From positions 352,001-416,000 of the forward strand of contig CAWHIJ010000003.1 in assembly GCA_963829525.1 (NCBI GenBank): 64,000 nucleotides of DNA, read 5' to 3'. This DNA is from an uncultured Actinomycetota bacterium. Lineage in GTDB: Bacteria > Actinomycetota > Actinomycetes > JAHEKZ01. Positions 9,376-21,212 of the stretch are shown piece by piece. A model generated the notes under the pieces. The model saw nothing but the letters and a program-made list of their open reading frames with translations. It made no database searches and was not told the origin of the DNA. How positions within the stretch are numbered: position 1 is the first letter of the stretch; the number at the start of each line of letters is the position of its first letter. The position numbers and the translations under genes are program-made.

Positions 9376-10906
9376 ATGGACAACCCGCAGCAGTTGGCGC
9401 GCACTGGCGCCTTGGCGGCATGGGTCAATGCCGGCCTGGGCCTGGTGCTGACCGTGCTGATCCACGTCGCCGACAAGTCGGTCCCCGTGGCCCTCCTTCC
9501 CGCCCTGATCTGGTGCGTACTGGGATTCGCCTTTGCGGCCAGTCGTGACGGTCTTGGCCCGGAGAGCGGCTAGCCAGCGACTCGAGGTCGGCAACCGTCG
9601 TCTTGCGCATGCCCTGATCACCACCGAGATGGTGTGGGTCGCGGGCCTCGTCGCGCTTACCGGCGGTTTACGCAGTCCCGTCTGGGTGCTGTTCGTCACC
9701 GTTGCCGTCTTCGTGGCCGATGTCGTCGAGCGCAAGGGACTGGCCACCTTCACTCTGCTCGCACTCGGCATGCTCTTCGCGGCGGCTCTCGCGTCCGGAA
9801 CCTTCAGCCTGCAGGTTCTGCCATGGTTGCTGGCTGCCGCAGCGATCATCCCGCTCACCGTCGGGTTCGACGAGATGCTCAAGTCCGGTATCCATGAGGG
9901 TCACAACACTCGGTTGCAGCGGAGCGTCGAAGAGCTCTCGGTGTCTTTGGGACAGGCTGCCGAGGGTGATCTCGCAGTTGCCATCCCAACGCCGGATGGC
10001 GACGATGTGGCGCTTCACTCGCTGGCGATCAACATCGACGAGACGTTGGTCTCGCTGCGTATGTTGGTCGATCGAGTCCGCGATGGTGGTGAGCGCATAT
10101 CGGTGAGTGCGCAAGAGCTGCAGTCAGCTGCCGAACTTCAGGCGTCAGCCTCGTCGAAGCAGTCGGGTGCGGTGACCGAGTCGACAGTGACCTTGCAGCA
10201 GCTCGCTGACATGGCCGAGACGATCGCTTCCTCCAGCGCCGAAGTAGTCGACCAGGCGGCGTTGACCTACCGTTATGCCGAGGAAGGCCAAGAGGCTGTC
10301 ACGAACGCCGTCGACGCAATCGATGCGATCGCCCATCGTTCCCGGTTGGTGGCCGAGCGGACCGCTGCGCTGGCCGACAAGTCAGGTGAGATCGGCCGCA
10401 TTCTCGATGTGATCGACGAACTTGCCAACCAGACCAACTTGCTCGCGTTGAACGCTGCGATCGAGGCCGCCCGTGCCGGTGAGCATGGCCGGGGCTTTGC
10501 CGTTGTTGCTGCGGAGGTTCGCAAGCTGGCTGAGCGTGCCCAGGCGTCGACCAAGCAGATCCAGACGATCGTCTCGGAGATCCAAGCCGAGATGCGGGCC
10601 ACAACGGCGGCGACGGCAGAAGGTGCAGAGGAAGTACTCAACGGCGTTGCCCTCGCCCGCGATGTCGTGACCGTCCTCGAGCGCATCTCCGAGGTTGCTG
10701 ACGAGACGACGACGGCAGCACGCGAGATCTCCAACGCCTCCGCACAGCAGCGTACGGCCTCGGCCGAGGTCGCTTCTGCGATGAATGACGTCGTTGGCGT
10801 CTCCGAGCAGACCGCGACAGGTTCGCGCGAGGCGGCCCATGCAGCCGCATCCCTCACGTCCCTGGCCGACGACCTCAGAGAGTCGATCTCCCGCTTCCGC
10901 ATCTAA
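9376..10906 (+). CDS. Methyl-accepting chemotaxis protein (apparent +1 frameshift near 9540)
   Basis: [34 protein letters not shown] signalling hairpin; multi-TM N-terminus; ATG 9376 with GGAAAGG RBS is in another frame until GCG GCC A GTC GTG. Confidence 0.9.
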
Positions 10907-10982: not shown

Positions 10983-12341
10983 GTGGTGGTTTGGGAGACT
11001 GACGCGGTGGTTCCCCCCTCCCTTGCTCCCAGCCTCGGCGATGCCGCGCGGACGTGGGCGTACGTCGGAGTCAACAGCTTCGGGGGACCGGCTGGCCAGA
11101 TCGCCGTCATGCACCGAGTCGTCGTTGACGAGCGACGGTGGATCGACGAGAAGCGCTACCTGCACGCGCTCAACTTCTGCATGGTGTTGCCCGGACCAGA
11201 GGCACTCCAGCTAGCGGTGTATCTCGGGTGGGTGCTCAACGGCGTCACCGGCGGCTTGATCGCTGGCGTTTTCTTCGTCATCCCGGGCCTGGCAGTGATG
11301 GCGGTCCTTGCCGCCATCTATTCCTCGTTCGGCGACATCGGCTGGATCTCCGCGCTGCTCTTCGGCATTCAGACCGCCGTCATCGCGATTGTGGTGCAGG
11401 CTGTCATACGAGTGGGACGCCGCTCGCTCCGGACACCACTCCTCGTTTCGCTTGCAGTGGGCGCCTTCATCGCACTTGCACTGTTCAACGTTCTCTTCCC
11501 GTTCGTCGTCGTCGCCGCCCTCGTCATCGGTTGGGTGGTTGGCCGTCGATCGCCTCGCGCCTTGCATGTCACCGTCGACCACGACGCCGAAGTGGACCAT
11601 GTTTCGCGGGCGGCAACCCGTTCTGCGCGTCGTGCCGGGTATGCAGCTCTCGTTCTCTGGGCTGTGCCGCTGTTGCTGATCATGGCCACCCTTGGCATGG
11701 AGAACATCCTCAGCCAACAGGCATGGCTGTTCGCGAAGACGGCGGTACTTTCCTTCGGGGGCGCTTACGCGGCGCTTTCGTATGTGTCTCAACAGGCGGT
11801 GGTCAACTACGCCTGGCTCGAACCCCGGGACATGGTTGCTGGATTGGGGTTGGCCGAGACGACGCCGGGGCCACTTGTTCTGGTCATGACTTTCGTCGGG
11901 TATGTGGGTGCCTATCGGGCATCGGATGACCTTGGCCTGCCCGGAGCCGTTGCCGGACTCATCGGGTTCTCCATCGCCGCCTGGGCGACGTTCTTGCCGT
12001 CATTGGGCTTCGTCCTTATCGGCGCGCCATCGGTGGAACGGCTACGGCACAACCCCAGAGTTGCCGGTTCATTGGCAGCGGTGACCGCGGCGGTCGTTGG
12101 CGTCATCGCCGATCTGGCGCTGTGGTTCTCGCTGAACGTCCTCTTCGATGACCTCTCCTGGCGATCTTGGGGACCAATCAGAGTGGAAGTCCCGGTTCCG
12201 GGTTCGCTGGACGGCCCTGCGCTGCTTCTGACGGCGGCAAGCCTGGTCCTGGTGCTCGGGCTGAAGTGGGGGCTGCTTCGCGTTCTGTCGCTCGCGGCGG
12301 CAGCGGGCCTGACGCTGTCCCTCCTCGGCCTTCATCCCTGA
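10983..12341 (+). CDS. chrA: Chromate efflux transporter (long-chain CHR)
   Basis: SFGGPAGQIAVM, LPGPEALQLA, FGGAYA, ETTPGP motifs in two homologous halves. Confidence 0.92.
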   Translation: MVVWETDAVVPPSLAPSLGDAARTWAYVGVNSFGGPAGQIAVMHRVVVDERRWIDEKRYLHALNFCMVLPGPEALQLAVYLGWVLNGVTGGLIAGVFFVIPGLAVMAVLAAIYSSFGDIGWISALLFGIQTAVIAIVVQAVIRVGRRSLRTPLLVSLAVGAFIALALFNVLFPFVVVAALVIGWVVGRRSPRALHVTVDHDAEVDHVSRAATRSARRAGYAALVLWAVPLLLIMATLGMENILSQQAWLFAKTAVLSFGGAYAALSYVSQQAVVNYAWLEPRDMVAGLGLAETTPGPLVLVMTFVGYVGAYRASDDLGLPGAVAGLIGFSIAAWATFLPSLGFVLIGAPSVERLRHNPRVAGSLAAVTAAVVGVIADLALWFSLNVLFDDLSWRSWGPIRVEVPVPGSLDGPALLLTAASLVLVLGLKWGLLRVLSLAAAAGLTLSLLGLHP

Positions 12342-16145: not shown

Positions 16146-16236
16146 GGAGGCGTCGCCTAGTCCGGTCGATGGCGCCCGCCTGCTAAGCGGGTTGGGGTCT
16201 TAAAGCCCCTCGGGGGTTCAAATCCCCCCGCCTCCG
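16146..16236 (+). tRNA. tRNA-Ser(GCT)
   Basis: Acceptor GGAGGCG/CGCCTCC, anticodon arm CCCGC-CTGCTAA-GCGGG, long variable arm, GTTCAAATC. Confidence 0.95.
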
Positions 16237-16249
16237 CCCCGTCAGTCAT

Positions 16250-16307
16250 CGAGACTGCAGTAGATGCCCACTGAGAGCCCTCAGCGCGGGCATCTACTGC
16301 AGTCTCG
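16250..16307. terminator. 20-bp perfect inverted repeat / long hairpin between the two tRNAs
   Basis: cgagactgcagtagatgccc (16250-16269) and gggcatctactgcagtctcg (16288-16307), plus inner ctgag/ctcag pairing. Confidence 0.6.
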
Positions 16308-16384: not shown

Positions 16385-16457
16385 GCGCCCGTAGCTCAAC
16401 GGATAGAGCATCTGACTACGGATCAGAAGGTTGGGAGTTCGAATCTCTCCGGGCGCG
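16385..16457 (+). tRNA. tRNA-Arg(ACG)
   Basis: GCGCCCG acceptor, TAGCTCAACGGATAGAGC D-arm, TCTGA-CTACGGA-TCAGA anticodon arm, GTTCGAATC. Confidence 0.97.
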
Positions 16458-16466
16458 CAACGTCAG

Positions 16467-16600
16467 TGTTTGGTTCCGGCTGATGCGTGACGTTTTGGCT
16501 TCGGCTGATGAGTCACGGTGGTTCCGCATGATCGGTGACACTTCTCCGATGTTGGTGGAGCAGAGATTTCAAGTGGTCGACGTGACGGTAACTGCGTTTC
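16467..16600 (+). mobile_element. Probable IS481-family left-end remnant
   Basis: Starts TGT; three ~21-nt imperfect repeats (16471, 16496, 16519, consensus tggttccg.ctgatg.gtgac), then MLVEQRFQVV resembling the V(V)EQRY.AV start of actinobacterial IS481 transposases; no intact transposase. Confidence 0.5.
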
Positions 16601-16737
16601 ATTGCCTCTTCGTCGTGGCCACCCCAGACCGCAACCACGTGTCGGGCACACCCTTCGGCGAAGGGTATGGGCTGGCCGGTCTAGTCTTCCGGCGTGGCTC
16701 GTCATGAGCCAGGGCACCGCCGGAGCAGAATCGCGGC

Positions 16738-17373
16738 ATGGCAGCAGAGGACGCGGGGCCGAGACGCCGACGACTGACGACAGGGCGGCTGGAGGCGTTC
16801 AGCGATGGCGTGTTTGCGATCGCGGTCACGTTGCTCATCTTGGATGTTGCGGTTCCGGCGGACTCGGACAGCAATCTTCTCGCATCGATCGGGGACCAGT
16901 GGCCGTCGTACCTGGCCTACCTGGTGAGTTTCTCGACCATAGGGGCGGTTTGGCTGGCGCACACTGTTATCACGGAGTATCTGGATCGTGCCGATGCGGT
17001 ATTCGTGCGGTTGAACCTGCTGCTCCTGCTGGTGGTTTCATTCTTGCCCTTCCCGACTCGGCTATTGGCGGAGTACGTCGAGGAGAGCGGGGCCGAGCGG
17101 GTGGCGGTCACGATCTACGGGATCAACCTCTTTCTCGCGTCGGTCTTGGTGTCAGTTCTGTGGCGCTACGCCGTTCGGGAACGTCTGCTGCGTCCCGATG
17201 CGAACGACGACGATGTCCGACTGTTGACTCGGCGGCTGACACCGGGTCTCGCCGGATACCTGGTCCTGATTGCGCTCGGGCTCTTCCTGCCCGTCGCTGC
17301 GGTGATCGGATACCTGCTGGTCGCGGTCTACTTCATCGTGCCGATAAGGAAGATCCGACACCGACAGACCTGA
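16738..17373 (+). CDS. TMEM175 (DUF1211) family channel protein
   Basis: RLEAFSDGVFAIAVTLL signature, W..H motif, 6 TM. Confidence 0.9.
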   Translation: MAAEDAGPRRRRLTTGRLEAFSDGVFAIAVTLLILDVAVPADSDSNLLASIGDQWPSYLAYLVSFSTIGAVWLAHTVITEYLDRADAVFVRLNLLLLLVVSFLPFPTRLLAEYVEESGAERVAVTIYGINLFLASVLVSVLWRYAVRERLLRPDANDDDVRLLTRRLTPGLAGYLVLIALGLFLPVAAVIGYLLVAVYFIVPIRKIRHRQT

Positions 17374-17504
17374 CCGGCGTTGGGGCGGCGTCTCAACCTG
17401 TGGTGGCACAACTGTCTCGCAACGATGCGATCCACCTGCCGGCTTGGTGACGCGTCCCTCGCAGGGCACGACACCTGTGCAACCCCATGGCACACCAATG
17501 GCCA

Positions 17505-17551
17505 GACTACGGATCAGGAGGTTGGGAGTTCGAATCTCTCCGGGCGCGCCA
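17505..17551 (+). repeat. tRNA-Arg 3' fragment copy R1 (att-like)
   Basis: 43/44 identical to tRNA-Arg 16414-16457, followed by CCA; no 5' half. Confidence 0.95.
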
Positions 17552-17618
17552 CAGGACGCCAGGTAAGTACCGGTTACTGCGGTGAAAGGACCGGGCGACT
17601 CTGGGCTTTCGGGGCGCA

Positions 17619-17640
17619 TTACTGCAGCGATTACTGCAGT
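17619..17640 (+). repeat. Paired TTACTGCA direct repeat (arm-type-site-like)
   Basis: TTACTGCAGCGA-TTACTGCAGT, 12-nt period; a third TTACTGC at 17574. Confidence 0.7.
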
Positions 17641-17673
17641 CCAGTTCGGGAGTGTTGCGGGCAGTCTCTGAAC

Positions 17674-17988
17674 CTAACTTGCCGTGGCGTCGCCGGCGAG
17701 GCCGATGAGGGTTGACCAATCGGGCGCTGCAATCAGTCCGTGCTCCACCCGGGGGAAGGGCAGCGCGAGCGGTTCGAGATGGCGCTGAACGTGCCCGCCG
17801 AACCCGTCGTGACCAACACCGGGTCCCCATACCAGCGTGACGAGCAGTCCCGCCTCCCCGCGGGCGACGACAACCGTGTCTGGTGACACGCCCCCCGAGC
17901 CCTGCCAGCGACGCGCTGCTTCTGCGTACCCGGCGAGGAGCACGTCCGGGTCGCCGGGGAAGTGCAGCATGACCACGTCTTGGCTCAT
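17674..17988 (-). CDS. Hypothetical protein (104 aa), divergent from MarR
   Basis: ATG 17988 (MSQDVVMLHFPGDPD) with AAGGAG RBS. Confidence 0.65.
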   Translation of the reverse strand: MSQDVVMLHFPGDPDVLLAGYAEAARRWQGSGGVSPDTVVVARGEAGLLVTLVWGPGVGHDGFGGHVQRHLEPLALPFPRVEHGLIAAPDWSTLIGLAGDATAS

Positions 17989-18039
17989 CGCAGGCTCCTT
18001 CAGTATAGTTTCTTTACTGTGAAAGGACGGTACAGGAAT

Positions 18040-18498
18040 TTGACCAACTCGTCTACGACCGGTGCGCCACTGGTAGGTGCACTGCTTCGTCGGCCGTTCT
18101 TCACGATGCGGCGCCGCATCGTGTCGGCCCTGCACCGGGAGGGTTACACAGACGTGCAGGCGTCTCACCTCGCCGTCTTCCAGTACCCCGGACCCGAGGG
18201 ACGGTCACCCCTGGAGTTGGCGCGGGATGCTCAGGTGAGCAAGCAGGTCATGAACCACCTACTCACCCAGCTCGAGCACGGTCAGTACCTGGAGCGGGTC
18301 ATCAATCCCGGCAATCATCGCCTGCGTCAGGTGGCGCTCACGGAGCAGGGCCACGCTGTCGTGGCGGTGATCCGCTCTGCCGTTGCAGAGGTGGAGTCGG
18401 AGTGGAAGACGGTCCTGGGACCAAGCACCTATCGACAACTGCGTGGCGCCTTGTTGGAACTCGCTGGCCATCTCGAGCTACCCGAGGGGGATCGCTGA
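18040..18498 (+). CDS. MarR family transcriptional regulator
   Basis: ELARDAQVSKQVMNHLLTQLE..QYLER..NP.NHR...V.LT..G winged helix; start uncertain (GTG 18019 or TTG 18040); CAGTA..TACTG inverted repeat in the divergent promoter. Confidence 0.85.
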   Translation: MTNSSTTGAPLVGALLRRPFFTMRRRIVSALHREGYTDVQASHLAVFQYPGPEGRSPLELARDAQVSKQVMNHLLTQLEHGQYLERVINPGNHRLRQVALTEQGHAVVAVIRSAVAEVESEWKTVLGPSTYRQLRGALLELAGHLELPEGDR

Positions 18499-18528
18499 GC
18501 CCGCGATCCCGTGGGGGAGCGGCCCGCG

Positions 18529-18624
18529 ACCGCGGACGACGTCGGCAGAACCGTGGCCCGGGCCATCGAGGCGGGTGTGGTGGGTGGCAACATCGAGGAT
18601 TTCGGGCCGAATGATTTGATCAGC
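18529..18624 (+). pseudogene. Internal fragment of an ICL/PEP-mutase family gene
   Basis: TADDVGRTVARAIEAGVVGGNIEDFGPNDLIS is 22/32 identical to the segment encoded at 20676-20771. Confidence 0.75.
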
Positions 18625-18639
18625 GATGGTGCCCTTGCC

Positions 18640-18661
18640 TTACTGCAACCGTTACTGCAAC
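18640..18661 (+). repeat. Paired TTACTGCA direct repeat (arm-type-site-like)
   Basis: TTACTGCAACCG-TTACTGCAAC, 12-nt period, same orientation as 17619-17640. Confidence 0.7.
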
Positions 18662-18752
18662 GCCGAGGAACTGAGGGAGACTCCGGAACACTTCCTGAGA
18701 ATGACGTGAGCGTGCTGACACGTCAGGAGACGTGGTGAGACGGCAAAACTAG

Positions 18753-18800
18753 GACTACGGATCAGAAGGTTGGGAGTTCGAATCTGTCCGGTCGCGCAAC
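18753..18800 (+). repeat. tRNA-Arg 3' fragment copy R2 (att-like)
   Basis: 42/44 identical to 16414-16457 and followed by the same CAAC as the intact tRNA. Confidence 0.93.
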
Positions 18801-19011
18801 ATTGCTGCAGGTCAGACGCACCGCGCCGCAGCCGACACCATCTCGACACCGGTGCAAGGGCACAGATACCTCGGTGAAGGAACTGTTTGACCGCCTCCGG
18901 GCATACGGGTTCTTTCCCCTGGTCCTGCTGGATGTTTTCGTTCTCGTCAAGGTCACCGACGATGGCGACCCAACGACTGCGTGCGCTGCTCACTGGGATG
19001 AATCTGACCGC

Positions 19012-19048
19012 ACCACGGATCAGGGGGGGGGGCTTTCGACTGCGTCCG
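19012..19048 (+). repeat. Degenerate tRNA-Arg 3' fragment copy R3
   Basis: Gapless 26/37 match to 16415-16451 (ACGGATCAG-N11-TTCGA...TCCG spacing preserved). Confidence 0.7.
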
Positions 19049-19124
19049 ACCTATGGATGGCTTTGGCCTCTACCACGCCTCGCATTAGGTCGCCACGATC
19101 GAATTGTCAGGGGGGGTGGATGTC

Positions 19125-19496
19125 ATGACAGCCCCAGTCAGCCAGCGTCCAGTGGTTCCCAAGTCGACGCAATCCGCGTGGCTTGTCCTCGCTGTTGGCA
19201 CGCTTGTTACGTTCTTCCTGGGCGTGGCCTCGCAGTTGGCCGTCTTCATCTCTCTCGGTCTCTGCCTGGACGAGGATCCGGACTTGTGCGATCCGGGCAC
19301 GTATCCCACGACGGCCGAGCATCTGCTCGCCACGATCCCGACCTACGCCCTGTGGGTGGCGCCGGCACTCGTCGCGGTGTTCATGGGATACCGGATCGTG
19401 AAGTCCGGGAACGTTGCCGGGCGCACCGTGATGGTCACCGCGGGTGTCGTTGCTGCTCTCGTGACGGTGGTCGCGACGCTCATGTGGTGGATTTGA
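19125..19496 (+). CDS. Hypothetical membrane protein (3 TM, Cys pair in loop)
   Basis: 123 aa, hydrophobic segments flanking CLDEDPDLC; fills the R3-R4 interval. Confidence 0.65.
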   Translation: MTAPVSQRPVVPKSTQSAWLVLAVGTLVTFFLGVASQLAVFISLGLCLDEDPDLCDPGTYPTTAEHLLATIPTYALWVAPALVAVFMGYRIVKSGNVAGRTVMVTAGVVAALVTVVATLMWWI

Positions 19497-19524
19497 TTTC
19501 ACGGGTGCAACTGGCTGGGAATTG

Positions 19525-19552
19525 GGGAGTTCGAATCTCTCCGGGCGCACCA
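19525..19552 (+). repeat. tRNA-Arg 3' fragment copy R4 (T-arm + acceptor)
   Basis: 24/24 match to 16433-16456, then ACCA. Confidence 0.9.
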
Positions 19553-19570: not shown

Positions 19571-20146
19571 TCAATTTGGGCTGGGTAGCTCCCTCGGGGA
19601 GTACACGAGGCGCAGAACTCCCGTCGGGAAAGCTTGTGAGCTCACAAGGTCCATTGGGTAGATCGGCTCGCCGTCGTCGAACAGTCTCATACCGGTTCGC
19701 GCTGCAACGGGGTGCACCAGCAACCGTAGTTCGTCGAGCAGCTCCGCTGCGAGTAGTTGTCGCACTACCGAGATTGACCCCGCTACCAGGATCTTGTCCA
19801 TCGTCGCTTCGCGCTTCAGCGCCGTCACGGCTTCGATCAAGTCGCCGTGCACCGCGTGCACATTTCGCCAGCCAAGATCCTGGCCCCTATGTGTGGCAAC
19901 GAGTTTGGGGGTGTCTCCAAGCTGAGCGGCGAACGTCGAGTCCTCACCTCCGGCGGCCTCGCGCTCTGGCCAAGCACCGGCGAAGCTGTCGTAGGTGACT
20001 CGTCCCAGAAGGAGGAGGTCCACGTCTTCGTAGTCCTCGCTCACCGCTGCACCCATGTTTGCGTCGAAGTATGGGGAGTGCCAGACGGGGTCTACTTCCA
20101 CCACGCCGTCAAGCGCCATGAACAACGTGGAAACGATCTTGGTCAT
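19571..20146 (-). CDS. Dihydrofolate reductase / RibD C-terminal domain protein
   Basis: FMALDGVVE, LLLGRVTY, GSISVVRQLL..LLDEL.L.VHPV..G.RLF. Confidence 0.88.
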   Translation of the reverse strand: MTKIVSTLFMALDGVVEVDPVWHSPYFDANMGAAVSEDYEDVDLLLLGRVTYDSFAGAWPEREAAGGEDSTFAAQLGDTPKLVATHRGQDLGWRNVHAVHGDLIEAVTALKREATMDKILVAGSISVVRQLLAAELLDELRLLVHPVAARTGMRLFDDGEPIYPMDLVSSQAFPTGVLRLVYSPRELPSPN

Positions 20147-20317
20147 CTGTTCCCCCTGGACGTACCGAGGTGTGGAGTACCGGCCCCTCAGCAATGCCGA
20201 TGGTCACAGGGTCCATGGTGTGCGGTCAATGTCCTAGCCCAGCCACCTATGCCGGCACTTGCGTTCGGCGCCATTTTTCCCGGCGGCATGACGGTGCCTG
20301 GGTATCGCATCGGGCCG

Positions 20318-20396: not shown

Positions 20397-21212
20397 GTGA
20401 CAGCCAAATCTCCGATGAACAGGGCAGCTGCCCTCCTTGCTTTGCACACCGGCCCCGGCTTCGTGCTCCCCAATGCGTGGGACGCGGGATCCGCCCGCGT
20501 CCTCGAGCAGGTCGGCTTCCCCGCCATCGCCACCACCAGCGCCGGCATCGCCTGGTCGTGCGGAGTTCCGGACGGAGAAGCGCTGGACCGCGACACGATG
20601 CTTGACCACGTGGCGCGCATCGTGGCTGCGGTGGGTGTGCCCGTGACCGCGGACCTCGAAGCCGGGTACGGCGACACCGCGGACGCTGTCGGCATCACCG
20701 TTGCCCGGGCAGTCGAACTGGGTGCCGTTGGCGGCAACATTGAGGATTCCAGGGCTGGCGGACTGATCAGCATCGATGAGGCCGTCGACCGTCTTGCGGC
20801 CGCCCGGGCAGCCGGGCCCAGCGGCACCTTCGTGCTGAACGCCCGAACTGACACCTACTTCGTCGGTACGAGTGGTGACGCATTCGACGAGACCGTCGAA
20901 CGCGCAGTTAGGTACGTCGAAGCGGGCGCCGACTGCGTCTTCGTGCCCGGGGTCGTTGAAGAGGAGACGATCCGCCAACTCTCCGAGGCCATCCCCGGCC
21001 CGCTCAACGTGGTAGCCGGGCTTGCGAACCTCATCGATGCGCCGACACTCTTCTCGCTTGGCGTCAAACGGGTCAGCCTGGGCGGCAGTTTGGCACGCGC
21101 CACACTTAGCACGTTGGAGCGCGCCGGCCGCGAGCTGCTTGACTCCGGAACGCTCGACTTCCTCGACGGCGCGATCGGGTACGCCGATCTGCAGCGACGC
21201 TTTGGCTCGTGA
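20397..21212 (+). CDS. Isocitrate lyase / PEP mutase family protein
   Basis: LPNAWDAGSA, ATTSAG, ADLEAGYG, GGNIED, LNARTD, GADCVFVPG. Confidence 0.92.
   Translation: MTAKSPMNRAAALLALHTGPGFVLPNAWDAGSARVLEQVGFPAIATTSAGIAWSCGVPDGEALDRDTMLDHVARIVAAVGVPVTADLEAGYGDTADAVGITVARAVELGAVGGNIEDSRAGGLISIDEAVDRLAAARAAGPSGTFVLNARTDTYFVGTSGDAFDETVERAVRYVEAGADCVFVPGVVEEETIRQLSEAIPGPLNVVAGLANLIDAPTLFSLGVKRVSLGGSLARATLSTLERAGRELLDSGTLDFLDGAIGYADLQRRFGS

Follow-up and report, generated by a model that had tools for sequence, protein, structure and literature searches.

The subject of this analysis is a row of displaced tRNA fragments and small genes that follows the intact tRNA-Arg(ACG) gene of an uncultured actinomycete lineage. 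The window, meaning the whole 64-kb stretch of DNA that was analysed, corresponds to G000:C3:352001-416000, where G000 is the genome to which it belongs; positions are window coordinates unless a contig is named. G000 comprises 2.96 Mb at 65% G+C in 3 contigs, of which the one carrying the window is 2.94 Mb long, and it appears to be metagenome-assembled, with 97% completeness and 1.2% contamination. The last 45 nt of the tRNA-Arg(ACG) gene (16414-16458), which begin in the last bases of the 5′ anticodon stem and end at the discriminator, form a shared core, and copies of this core, named R1 to R4, recur downstream. One interval between the copies is bounded by what we read as the left and right attachment sites (attL and attR) and the inner arms (P′ and P) of an integrated element family, called B here; a sibling, family A, is found in relatives. 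The features of the array and its flanks are listed below in order of position.

16146..16238 (+), tRNA-Ser(GCT) gene (ARAGORN and Rfam), a left neighbour that is kept beside CorA and tRNA-Arg in relatives.
16385..16458 (+), intact tRNA-Arg(ACG) gene (ARAGORN and Rfam, 69 bits in Rfam), the attachment target.
16466..16580 (+), orphan left end of an IS481-family insertion sequence (IS), marked by three subterminal repeats of 23-25 nt (16469-16540); a transposase gene begins at 16549 (MLVEQRF...) but is cut short.
16738..17373 (+), gene for a TMEM175-family channel, carried as cargo in the first interval.
17505..17552 (+), R1, displaced core copy, 44/45 identical and followed by an encoded CCA; predicted attL core of a family-B element.
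17553..17640 (+), putative P′ arm of family B, with TTACTGCR at 17574, 17619 and 17631 (+25, +70 and +82 from the core end).
17674..17991 (-), hypothetical open reading frame (ORF) of 105 amino acids (aa), without a Pfam or NCBIfam match.
18040..18498 (+), MarR-like regulator, with weak matches below the curated cut-offs.
18529..18624 (+), pseudogene fragment of the isocitrate-lyase/PEP-mutase family, 32 residues.
18637..18752 (+), putative P arm of family B, with TTACTGCAAC at 18640 and 18652 (-113 and -101 from R2).
18753..18797 (+), R2, displaced core copy, 43/45 identical; predicted attR core of the family-B element.
19011..19055 (+), R3, possible, heavily decayed core copy, 27/45 identical with a run of ten G inside; not significant alone.
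19104..19496 (+), predicted membrane ORF of 130 aa, without a family match.
19525..19552 (+), R4, 5′-truncated core copy, a 24/24 block (19525-19548) followed by ACCA.
19571..20194 (-), RibD_C-domain gene, between R4 and the conserved flank; not found at the corresponding place in the examined relatives.
20397..21212 (+), intact PEP-mutase family gene of the conserved right neighbourhood, 84-87% in G016, G005 and G023.

The original prediction, made from the letters of the window, had listed four direct copies of the 3′ part of the tRNA. When a 29-nt core pattern was searched for with up to three mismatches allowed, three matches were found in the window and none in 100 shuffles, and BLAST of the 3′ fragment across the whole G000 genome returned the tRNA itself, R1, R2 and R4 and no other copy. 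R1, R2 and R4 proved to be real, the region of R4 matching the 45-nt core at 32/45 without gaps when counted from 19506, but R3 was no better than chance, as its 27/45 falls within the maxima of 24-29 obtained from 30 simulated 64-kb sequences. R3 as a certain copy was rejected on this score, its position inside the array being the sole point in its favour, and it is therefore treated as a possible, badly decayed copy. Two homopolymers, G10 (19024-19033) and G7 (19110-19116), lie inside and just past the decayed R3 region.

The 3′ ends of the copies differ. GCGCG-CAA is found in the tRNA and in R2, GCGCG-CCA in R1, and GCGCA-CCA in R4, and the GCGCA-CC variant of R4 is also present in copies of G006 and G008. 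The GCAGGTCAG motif directly follows R2, and it also follows many cores in relatives, the left end of family A included. The anticodon loop is the crossover position of many tRNA-targeting tyrosine integrases. The original prediction was right to read the repeats as attachment scars of such integrases that start at the 5′ edge of this loop, the block of identity being the last 45 nt of the tRNA, and right to ascribe the different 3′ ends to different donors. It was also correct that no recombinase lies in the 64 kb: a profile search of the window found no tyrosine recombinase (PF00589), no resolvase (PF00239) and no rve transposase (PF00665).

The interval between R1 and R2 is the best preserved part of the array, and the parts around it are more broken. 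Both attachment sites and all arm sites are retained, and the integration and transfer genes are gone, which are two criteria by which a cis-mobilizable element (CIME) is recognized. The interval contains only the hypothetical ORF, the MarR-like gene and the PEP-mutase fragment, and no integrase. All five TTACTGCR sites of the 64 kb, with both strands counted, lie between R1 and R2 on one strand, compared with a chance expectation of 1.0. The 32 residues of the PEP-mutase fragment align with residues 94-125 of the intact paralogue (20397-21212), and 22 of them are identical (E = 1e-9). Judged from these sequence features, R1-R2 appears to be a complete remnant of the CIME type.

The order to which G000 belongs is represented by 20 genomes in the collection used, and the tRNA-Arg(ACG) locus or the contigs bearing core copies were taken from 14 relatives; none of the conclusions depends on two unpublished genomes, G025 and G033. 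At least one displaced 3′ copy was found behind the same tRNA in 10 of the 14 (G003, G005, G006, G007, G008, G009, G015, G016, G018 and G019), with intervals of about 0.9 to 10 kb whose content varies from genome to genome. G004 has an almost empty site in which an alpha/beta-hydrolase gene begins about 0.55 kb after the tRNA, and the same hydrolase gene comes after the last copy in G005, G008 and G009. Three of the relatives carry family A (G007:C20, G016:C5 and G006:C77), elements of 9-10 kb whose left boundary is either the tRNA or a core copy and whose right boundary is the copy after it. Each encodes a tyrosine integrase of 400 aa that is 92.5-94.3% identical across the three genomes, and the element of G007 (G007:C20:1-10360) has, in addition, genes for two HipA-like proteins, for an ABC transporter and for a TrwC-type relaxase of 1,033 aa that includes a helicase domain. 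Family A is thus an integrative mobilisable element (IME) in that it combines an integrase with a relaxase, and this combination lies between attL and attR in all three genomes and is absent from the window. The family-A element of about 10 kb in the three relatives also carries a 762-aa ORF without a Pfam match.

The ends of family A consist of tandem GCAGCTATGCGG-type repeats with a 12-bp period, two per arm. By analogy with lambda-type attachment sites, such tandem repeats at element ends are read as arm-type integrase sites. Families A and B have the same 45-nt core and the same arm-site spacing, with TTACTGCR in family B in place of GCAGCTATGCGG: in G007, the family-A sites are found at +72/+84 past the attL core and at -112/-100 ahead of the attR core, and the corresponding values for family B in the window are +70/+82 and -113/-101. 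In G006:C77, the first interval retains the left end of family A over 1,018 nt (95% identity), breaks off there and closes with a truncated core; a full family-A element comes next. This arrangement shows an intermediate stage of decay.

The right arm of family B is not confined to the window. Its 113 nt, together with the core, recur at 82-92% identity in G019, G008, G006, G009 (twice) and G003 and at 97% in G015, which gives eight occurrences in seven genomes with G000 included, and unrelated DNA precedes the arm each time. The P arm is 83-91% identical where the neighbouring CorA gene is 71-82% identical, and it is the more conserved of the two in all five possible comparisons, which suggests either constraint or recent spread. 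The arm borders directly on the native flank in G008 and in one of the two copies on G009:C50. The family-B interval of G019 measures 5.6 kb and encodes only a TetR regulator, an acyl-AMP ligase, an S15 peptidase and an MDMPI-like protein. No other P′-type arm was found in the 20 genomes of the order with the pattern TACTGCR-N5-TACTGCR, so that the left arm is present in the window copy only and the other seven copies are one-armed fossils. The MarR-like gene was considered as a core gene of family B and rejected, the MarR proteins of the window and of G008 being 26% identical over 81 residues.

An integrase-bearing family-B element was sought more widely. Arm patterns gave none in the 20 genomes of the order, and scans by pattern gave none in GTDB species genomes, in JGI metagenome contigs (with one junction pattern) or in IMG/VR; in IMG/VR, neither a protein search with the family-A integrase nor a scan for the P-arm double repeat gave a match. 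The JGI scan for the family-B attL junction returned seven matches, all attributable to chance, in unrelated sequence with no tRNA near. The GTDB scan for the P-arm double repeat returned 10 species, of which six are relatives already known; in the other four, nothing but the 25-nt double repeat is shared and its surroundings are unrelated, and these were set aside. Family B is therefore known so far from integrase-less remnants only. As a separate observation, contigs from other taxa that are otherwise unrelated also contain the 25-nt double repeat TACTGCAACCGGTACTGCAACGCC (L032 3207-3231, L037 5590-5614 and L035 26-50), namely in two low-G+C intergenic regions and one metagenome-assembled genome labelled Modestobacter, which exceeds the roughly 0.5 matches expected by chance according to a hand estimate.

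A second genus holds a close relative of the R1-R2 unit. In G015, a block made up of the MarR gene, the PEP-mutase fragment, the arm and the core is 97% identical to that of G000 over 770 nt and ends exactly at the core, past which the sequences differ, whereas the CorA DNA of the two genomes is only about 71% identical. The unit, with the fragment already inside, would therefore have moved between genera recently. The block lies on one contig (C91), and the intact tRNA-Arg of G015 lies at the edge of another (the start of C246), followed by the same CCACAGGAC junction as is found after R1. The left ~470-488 nt of the unit are unassembled in G015, and that copy may hold an integrase. Two contigs of G015 that do encode integrases (C241 and C52) lack arm motifs and are not linked to the family-B unit. 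The original prediction had named fixed content across relatives and imprecise boundaries as signs that would speak against mobility. The content was found to differ between relatives, and R1-R2 is precisely bounded by the repeats in the second genus, so that mobility is not refuted.

The first interval, from the tRNA to R1, opens 8 nt past tRNA-Arg with IS-type repeats, followed by an ATG and MLVEQRF. What is left of the IS481-family end amounts to the left-end repeats and about seven codons; the DDE (rve) transposase that should lie between inverted ends is absent, and a profile search found no rve domain anywhere in G000. Like repeat clusters are found in relatives directly after tRNA-Lys(CTT), tRNA-Lys(TTT), tRNA-Met and tRNA-Arg(CCT), followed by the start MLVELSVVEQRYQAV. 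In G001 the clusters flank genes that match the model of IS481-family transposases, and the repeat recurs in inverted form at their far end; the full copies there score 126-167 bits against NF033577, under the 224-bit cut-off because they are split. On this comparison, 16466-16580 is an orphan, truncated left end of an IS481-family insertion sequence.

The clusters of this family consist of 3-8 direct repeats of 23-25 nt with a consensus near TTCGGCTGATGNGTGAC. G000 has exactly three of them, at 16466-16548 in the window, C3:2420389-2420545 and C3:109399-109485, and in all three cases a tRNA gene on the same strand (Arg-ACG, Lys-CTT or Lys-TTT) lies 15-44 nt upstream. The element may preferentially insert in the 3′ flank of tRNA genes. 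A literature search returned no paper on IS481-family targeting of tRNA flanks, which does not establish such targeting as undescribed. At the DNA level, the TMEM175 gene downstream of the IS end shares 82-83% identity with copies located elsewhere than at tRNA-Arg in G017 and G018, which belong to two other genera, compared with only 71-72% for CorA in the same genomes, and it therefore looks horizontally acquired.

Of the genes that the original prediction assigned to the intervals, TMEM175, the hypothetical ORF with the MarR-like gene, and the small membrane ORF were all recovered. The exception was the supposed membrane-protein remnant near 18874, between R2 and R3, which was compared with TMEM175 and rejected (E = 12), and which has no significant similarity to anything compared. 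At the right edge of the array, the native flanking alpha/beta-hydrolase gene is absent from G000, and the 1.8 kb next to the hydrolase in the G005 flank are located about 800 kb away in G000; the right edge has therefore been deleted or rearranged.

Our data are best explained by serial site-specific integration (accretion) at tRNA-Arg(ACG) followed by deletion decay, a reading to which we assign a probability of about 0.78, and which the original prediction had named as the alternative to its own proposal, in the form of decayed tandem islands. Four things behind it are directly observed, namely the repeats, the geometry of the arms, the gene fragments and the relatives that bear an integrase. 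We infer from these the order of events and that the small intervals were made by deletions and not by the capture of small units. The locus would be an integration hot spot at which elements with tyrosine integrases recombine their 45-nt core with the tRNA gene. Each newcomer would rebuild the tRNA with its own core and displace the old 3′ part, together with all earlier integrations, downstream, so that an attL core and the DNA to its right would belong to the element, and an attR core and the DNA to its right would be former chromosome. At least three integration events would have taken place here, by at least two sibling families with a common core and arm spacing and a different arm repeat. 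Later deletions would have removed the integrase and transfer modules and left remnants flanked by attachment sites with a few cargo genes.

In this order of events, R4 and R3 would be the oldest scars, R2 would be the 3′ end that the tRNA had when family B arrived, and R1, with its CCA and its CCACAGGAC junction, would be family B's own core. The present 3′ end of the tRNA would have been brought by a later element that left TMEM175 and the DNA before R1 behind, and the insertion and truncation of the IS481-family element would be the last event. The order is supported by G015, because its tRNA-Arg has the same CCACAGGAC junction and its second contig has the 97% block. Decay is favoured because the window holds the PEP-mutase fragment, an IS end truncated in a genome that has no rve domain, and the 5′-truncated R4, and because the native flanking hydrolase gene has been lost and G006:C77 shows an intermediate stage. 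If this account is correct, the locus is a clear case of one tRNA gene that gathers small accessory genes by repeated integration and decay. Families A and B, with core and spacing in common and the arm-site sequence swapped, would be a natural system for the study of divergence in integrase arm recognition. The locus reveals no new recombination system, and the pattern is known and fairly ordinary.

Several results weigh against the account of accretion and decay. Neither the first (TMEM175) interval nor the R2-R4 part has recognisable arm repeats or a homologue in a larger island. None of the eight family-B intervals or contigs has a PF00589 match, two of the intervals ending at contig edges, and for R1-R2 the decay from a larger element is argued from the gene fragment and not from homology because no family-B element with an integrase was found. 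The truncated state of MarR, fragment and arm was either moved between genera or inherited by both. In addition, between G000 and G015 the attL core diverges more than the element DNA next to it, and the five differences match each host's own tRNA, which the account cannot explain without gene conversion or a variable crossover point.

The explanation that survives next best is that the family-B units are small non-autonomous elements that are moved in trans by an integrase made elsewhere, with the array growing by cassette capture. We consider this unlikely, although parts of the evidence would suit it. The retention of all arm sites at canonical spacing in R1-R2 speaks for it, but the unit carries a pseudogene fragment, the left arm is found in the window copy alone, and the other seven copies are one-armed. 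That none of the eight arms in seven genomes is accompanied by an integrase agrees with mobilisation in trans. A tyrosine recombinase elsewhere in the genome, for which the original prediction had proposed a search, does exist, the PF00589 match nearest to the window lying 81 kb past its end beside tRNA-Pro; however, no family-B integrase was found in G000, and its only full-length, non-Xer-like integrase, which adjoins tRNA-Pro(CGG), is 30% identical to the family-A integrase. The near-identical right 770 nt of G015, with their precise end at the core and the CCACAGGAC junction in a different genus, speak for movement of the unit as it stands, but that copy may have its integrase in the unassembled left ~470 bp. 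Likewise, the high conservation of the P arm relative to CorA would fit recent spread, while an arm that abuts the native flank, as in G008 and one G009:C50 copy, is expected of an old, vertically inherited scar. A broader proposal is that family B is a whole lineage of integrase-less mini-elements which keep their attachment arms, swap cargo and spread between genera by a borrowed integrase. This seems slightly more doubtful again; if true, the tRNA-Arg locus would be a capture site for small cassettes. That the array is an assembly artefact, with strain variants chained at the 45-nt core, or a local duplication instead of an integration product is very improbable: G000 appears to be metagenome-assembled and repeats can mislead assemblers, but the contig is 2.94 Mb long in a 3-contig assembly, similar arrays are present in 10 of 14 relatives assembled independently, and the flanks vary from copy to copy and include arm sites of the element type, a pattern that local duplication does not account for.

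The original prediction had likened the array to an integron that captures small cassettes at a tRNA. The likeness lies in a row of short repeats between small, gene-sized units at one anchor site, and it did not hold up on comparison. The attC sites of integrons are imperfect inverted repeats that fold, whereas the repeats of the array are direct copies of the 45 nt at the tRNA 3′ end, together with direct arm-type repeats. The array has no adjacent integrase (IntI) or attI, in line with the lack of PF00589 in the window, and its genes are on both strands, with a MarR-like regulator of their own, pseudogene fragments and an IS end. It thus lacks all three hallmarks of integrons, namely IntI with attI, attC ends, and mostly promoterless single ORFs in one orientation. 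Cassette capture also sits poorly with the 32-residue fragment, the truncated IS end and the 5′-truncated core, and with relatives that hold integrase-and-relaxase elements of 9-10 kb at the same tRNA, one of them beside a decay intermediate.

According to passages of PMC5704250, tandems of this kind usually originate in three steps, integration, then decay to a CIME, then accretion. CIMEs and tandem accretion were first described for ICESt1-related islands of Streptococcus thermophilus. As in that account, the array would have arisen by integration, decay and renewed integration at the same site. It differs from the ICESt1-related CIMEs in its target, tRNA-Arg(ACG) in an uncultured actinomycete lineage, and in that its remnants measure 0.2-1.2 kb, stand three or four in a row and have no live partner in the genome; their mobilisation in cis or in trans is putative. 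The islands of Prochlorococcus, as portrayed in sections of bioRxiv 10.1101/2020.12.28.424599, grow by successive tRNA integrations that push older elements inward, and partial tRNAs and broken genes mark the older events. Partial tRNAs would likewise mark older integrations in the array, but unlike the tycheposons of those islands, as they are presented there, family A is a mobilisable element with an integrase and a relaxase. Tandem genomic islands at the tmRNA gene ssrA of Dehalococcoides, reported in PMC3146451, are similar in that they are integrated at the 3′ end of a small RNA gene. With respect to tRNA-targeting IMEs, the likeness is found in the relatives, where family A has a tyrosine integrase, a TrwC-type relaxase and cargo between the tRNA and a displaced 3′ copy; the window differs in having none of those genes and only scars and one complete pair of attachment sites of the sibling family.

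Other traces of integrative elements were noted in G000 and its relatives. A short C-terminal integrase fragment (C3:2732352-2732432) lies beside tRNA-Arg(CCT) (2732133-2732208) in G000, and a split integrase gene is found at C3:1461023-1461510; both are further decayed integrative elements. In G009:C21 (L019), the 5′ part of tRNA-Arg(ACG), positions 3-57, is repeated at 9711-9765, some 6 kb past the intact gene, whereas every other copy represents the opposite half of the tRNA. In G019:C1 (L013), a fragment of IstB, the IS21 helper, which covers the C-terminal half of the profile only, lies at 11239-11877 in an inter-repeat interval of 1.4 kb and is another case of decay inside such arrays. 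The Rfam scan gave no significant match beyond tRNA-Ser and tRNA-Arg, and the DNA between these two genes contains a perfect 20-nt inverted repeat with an 18-nt loop (16250-16307) that is probably a terminator or a processing hairpin.

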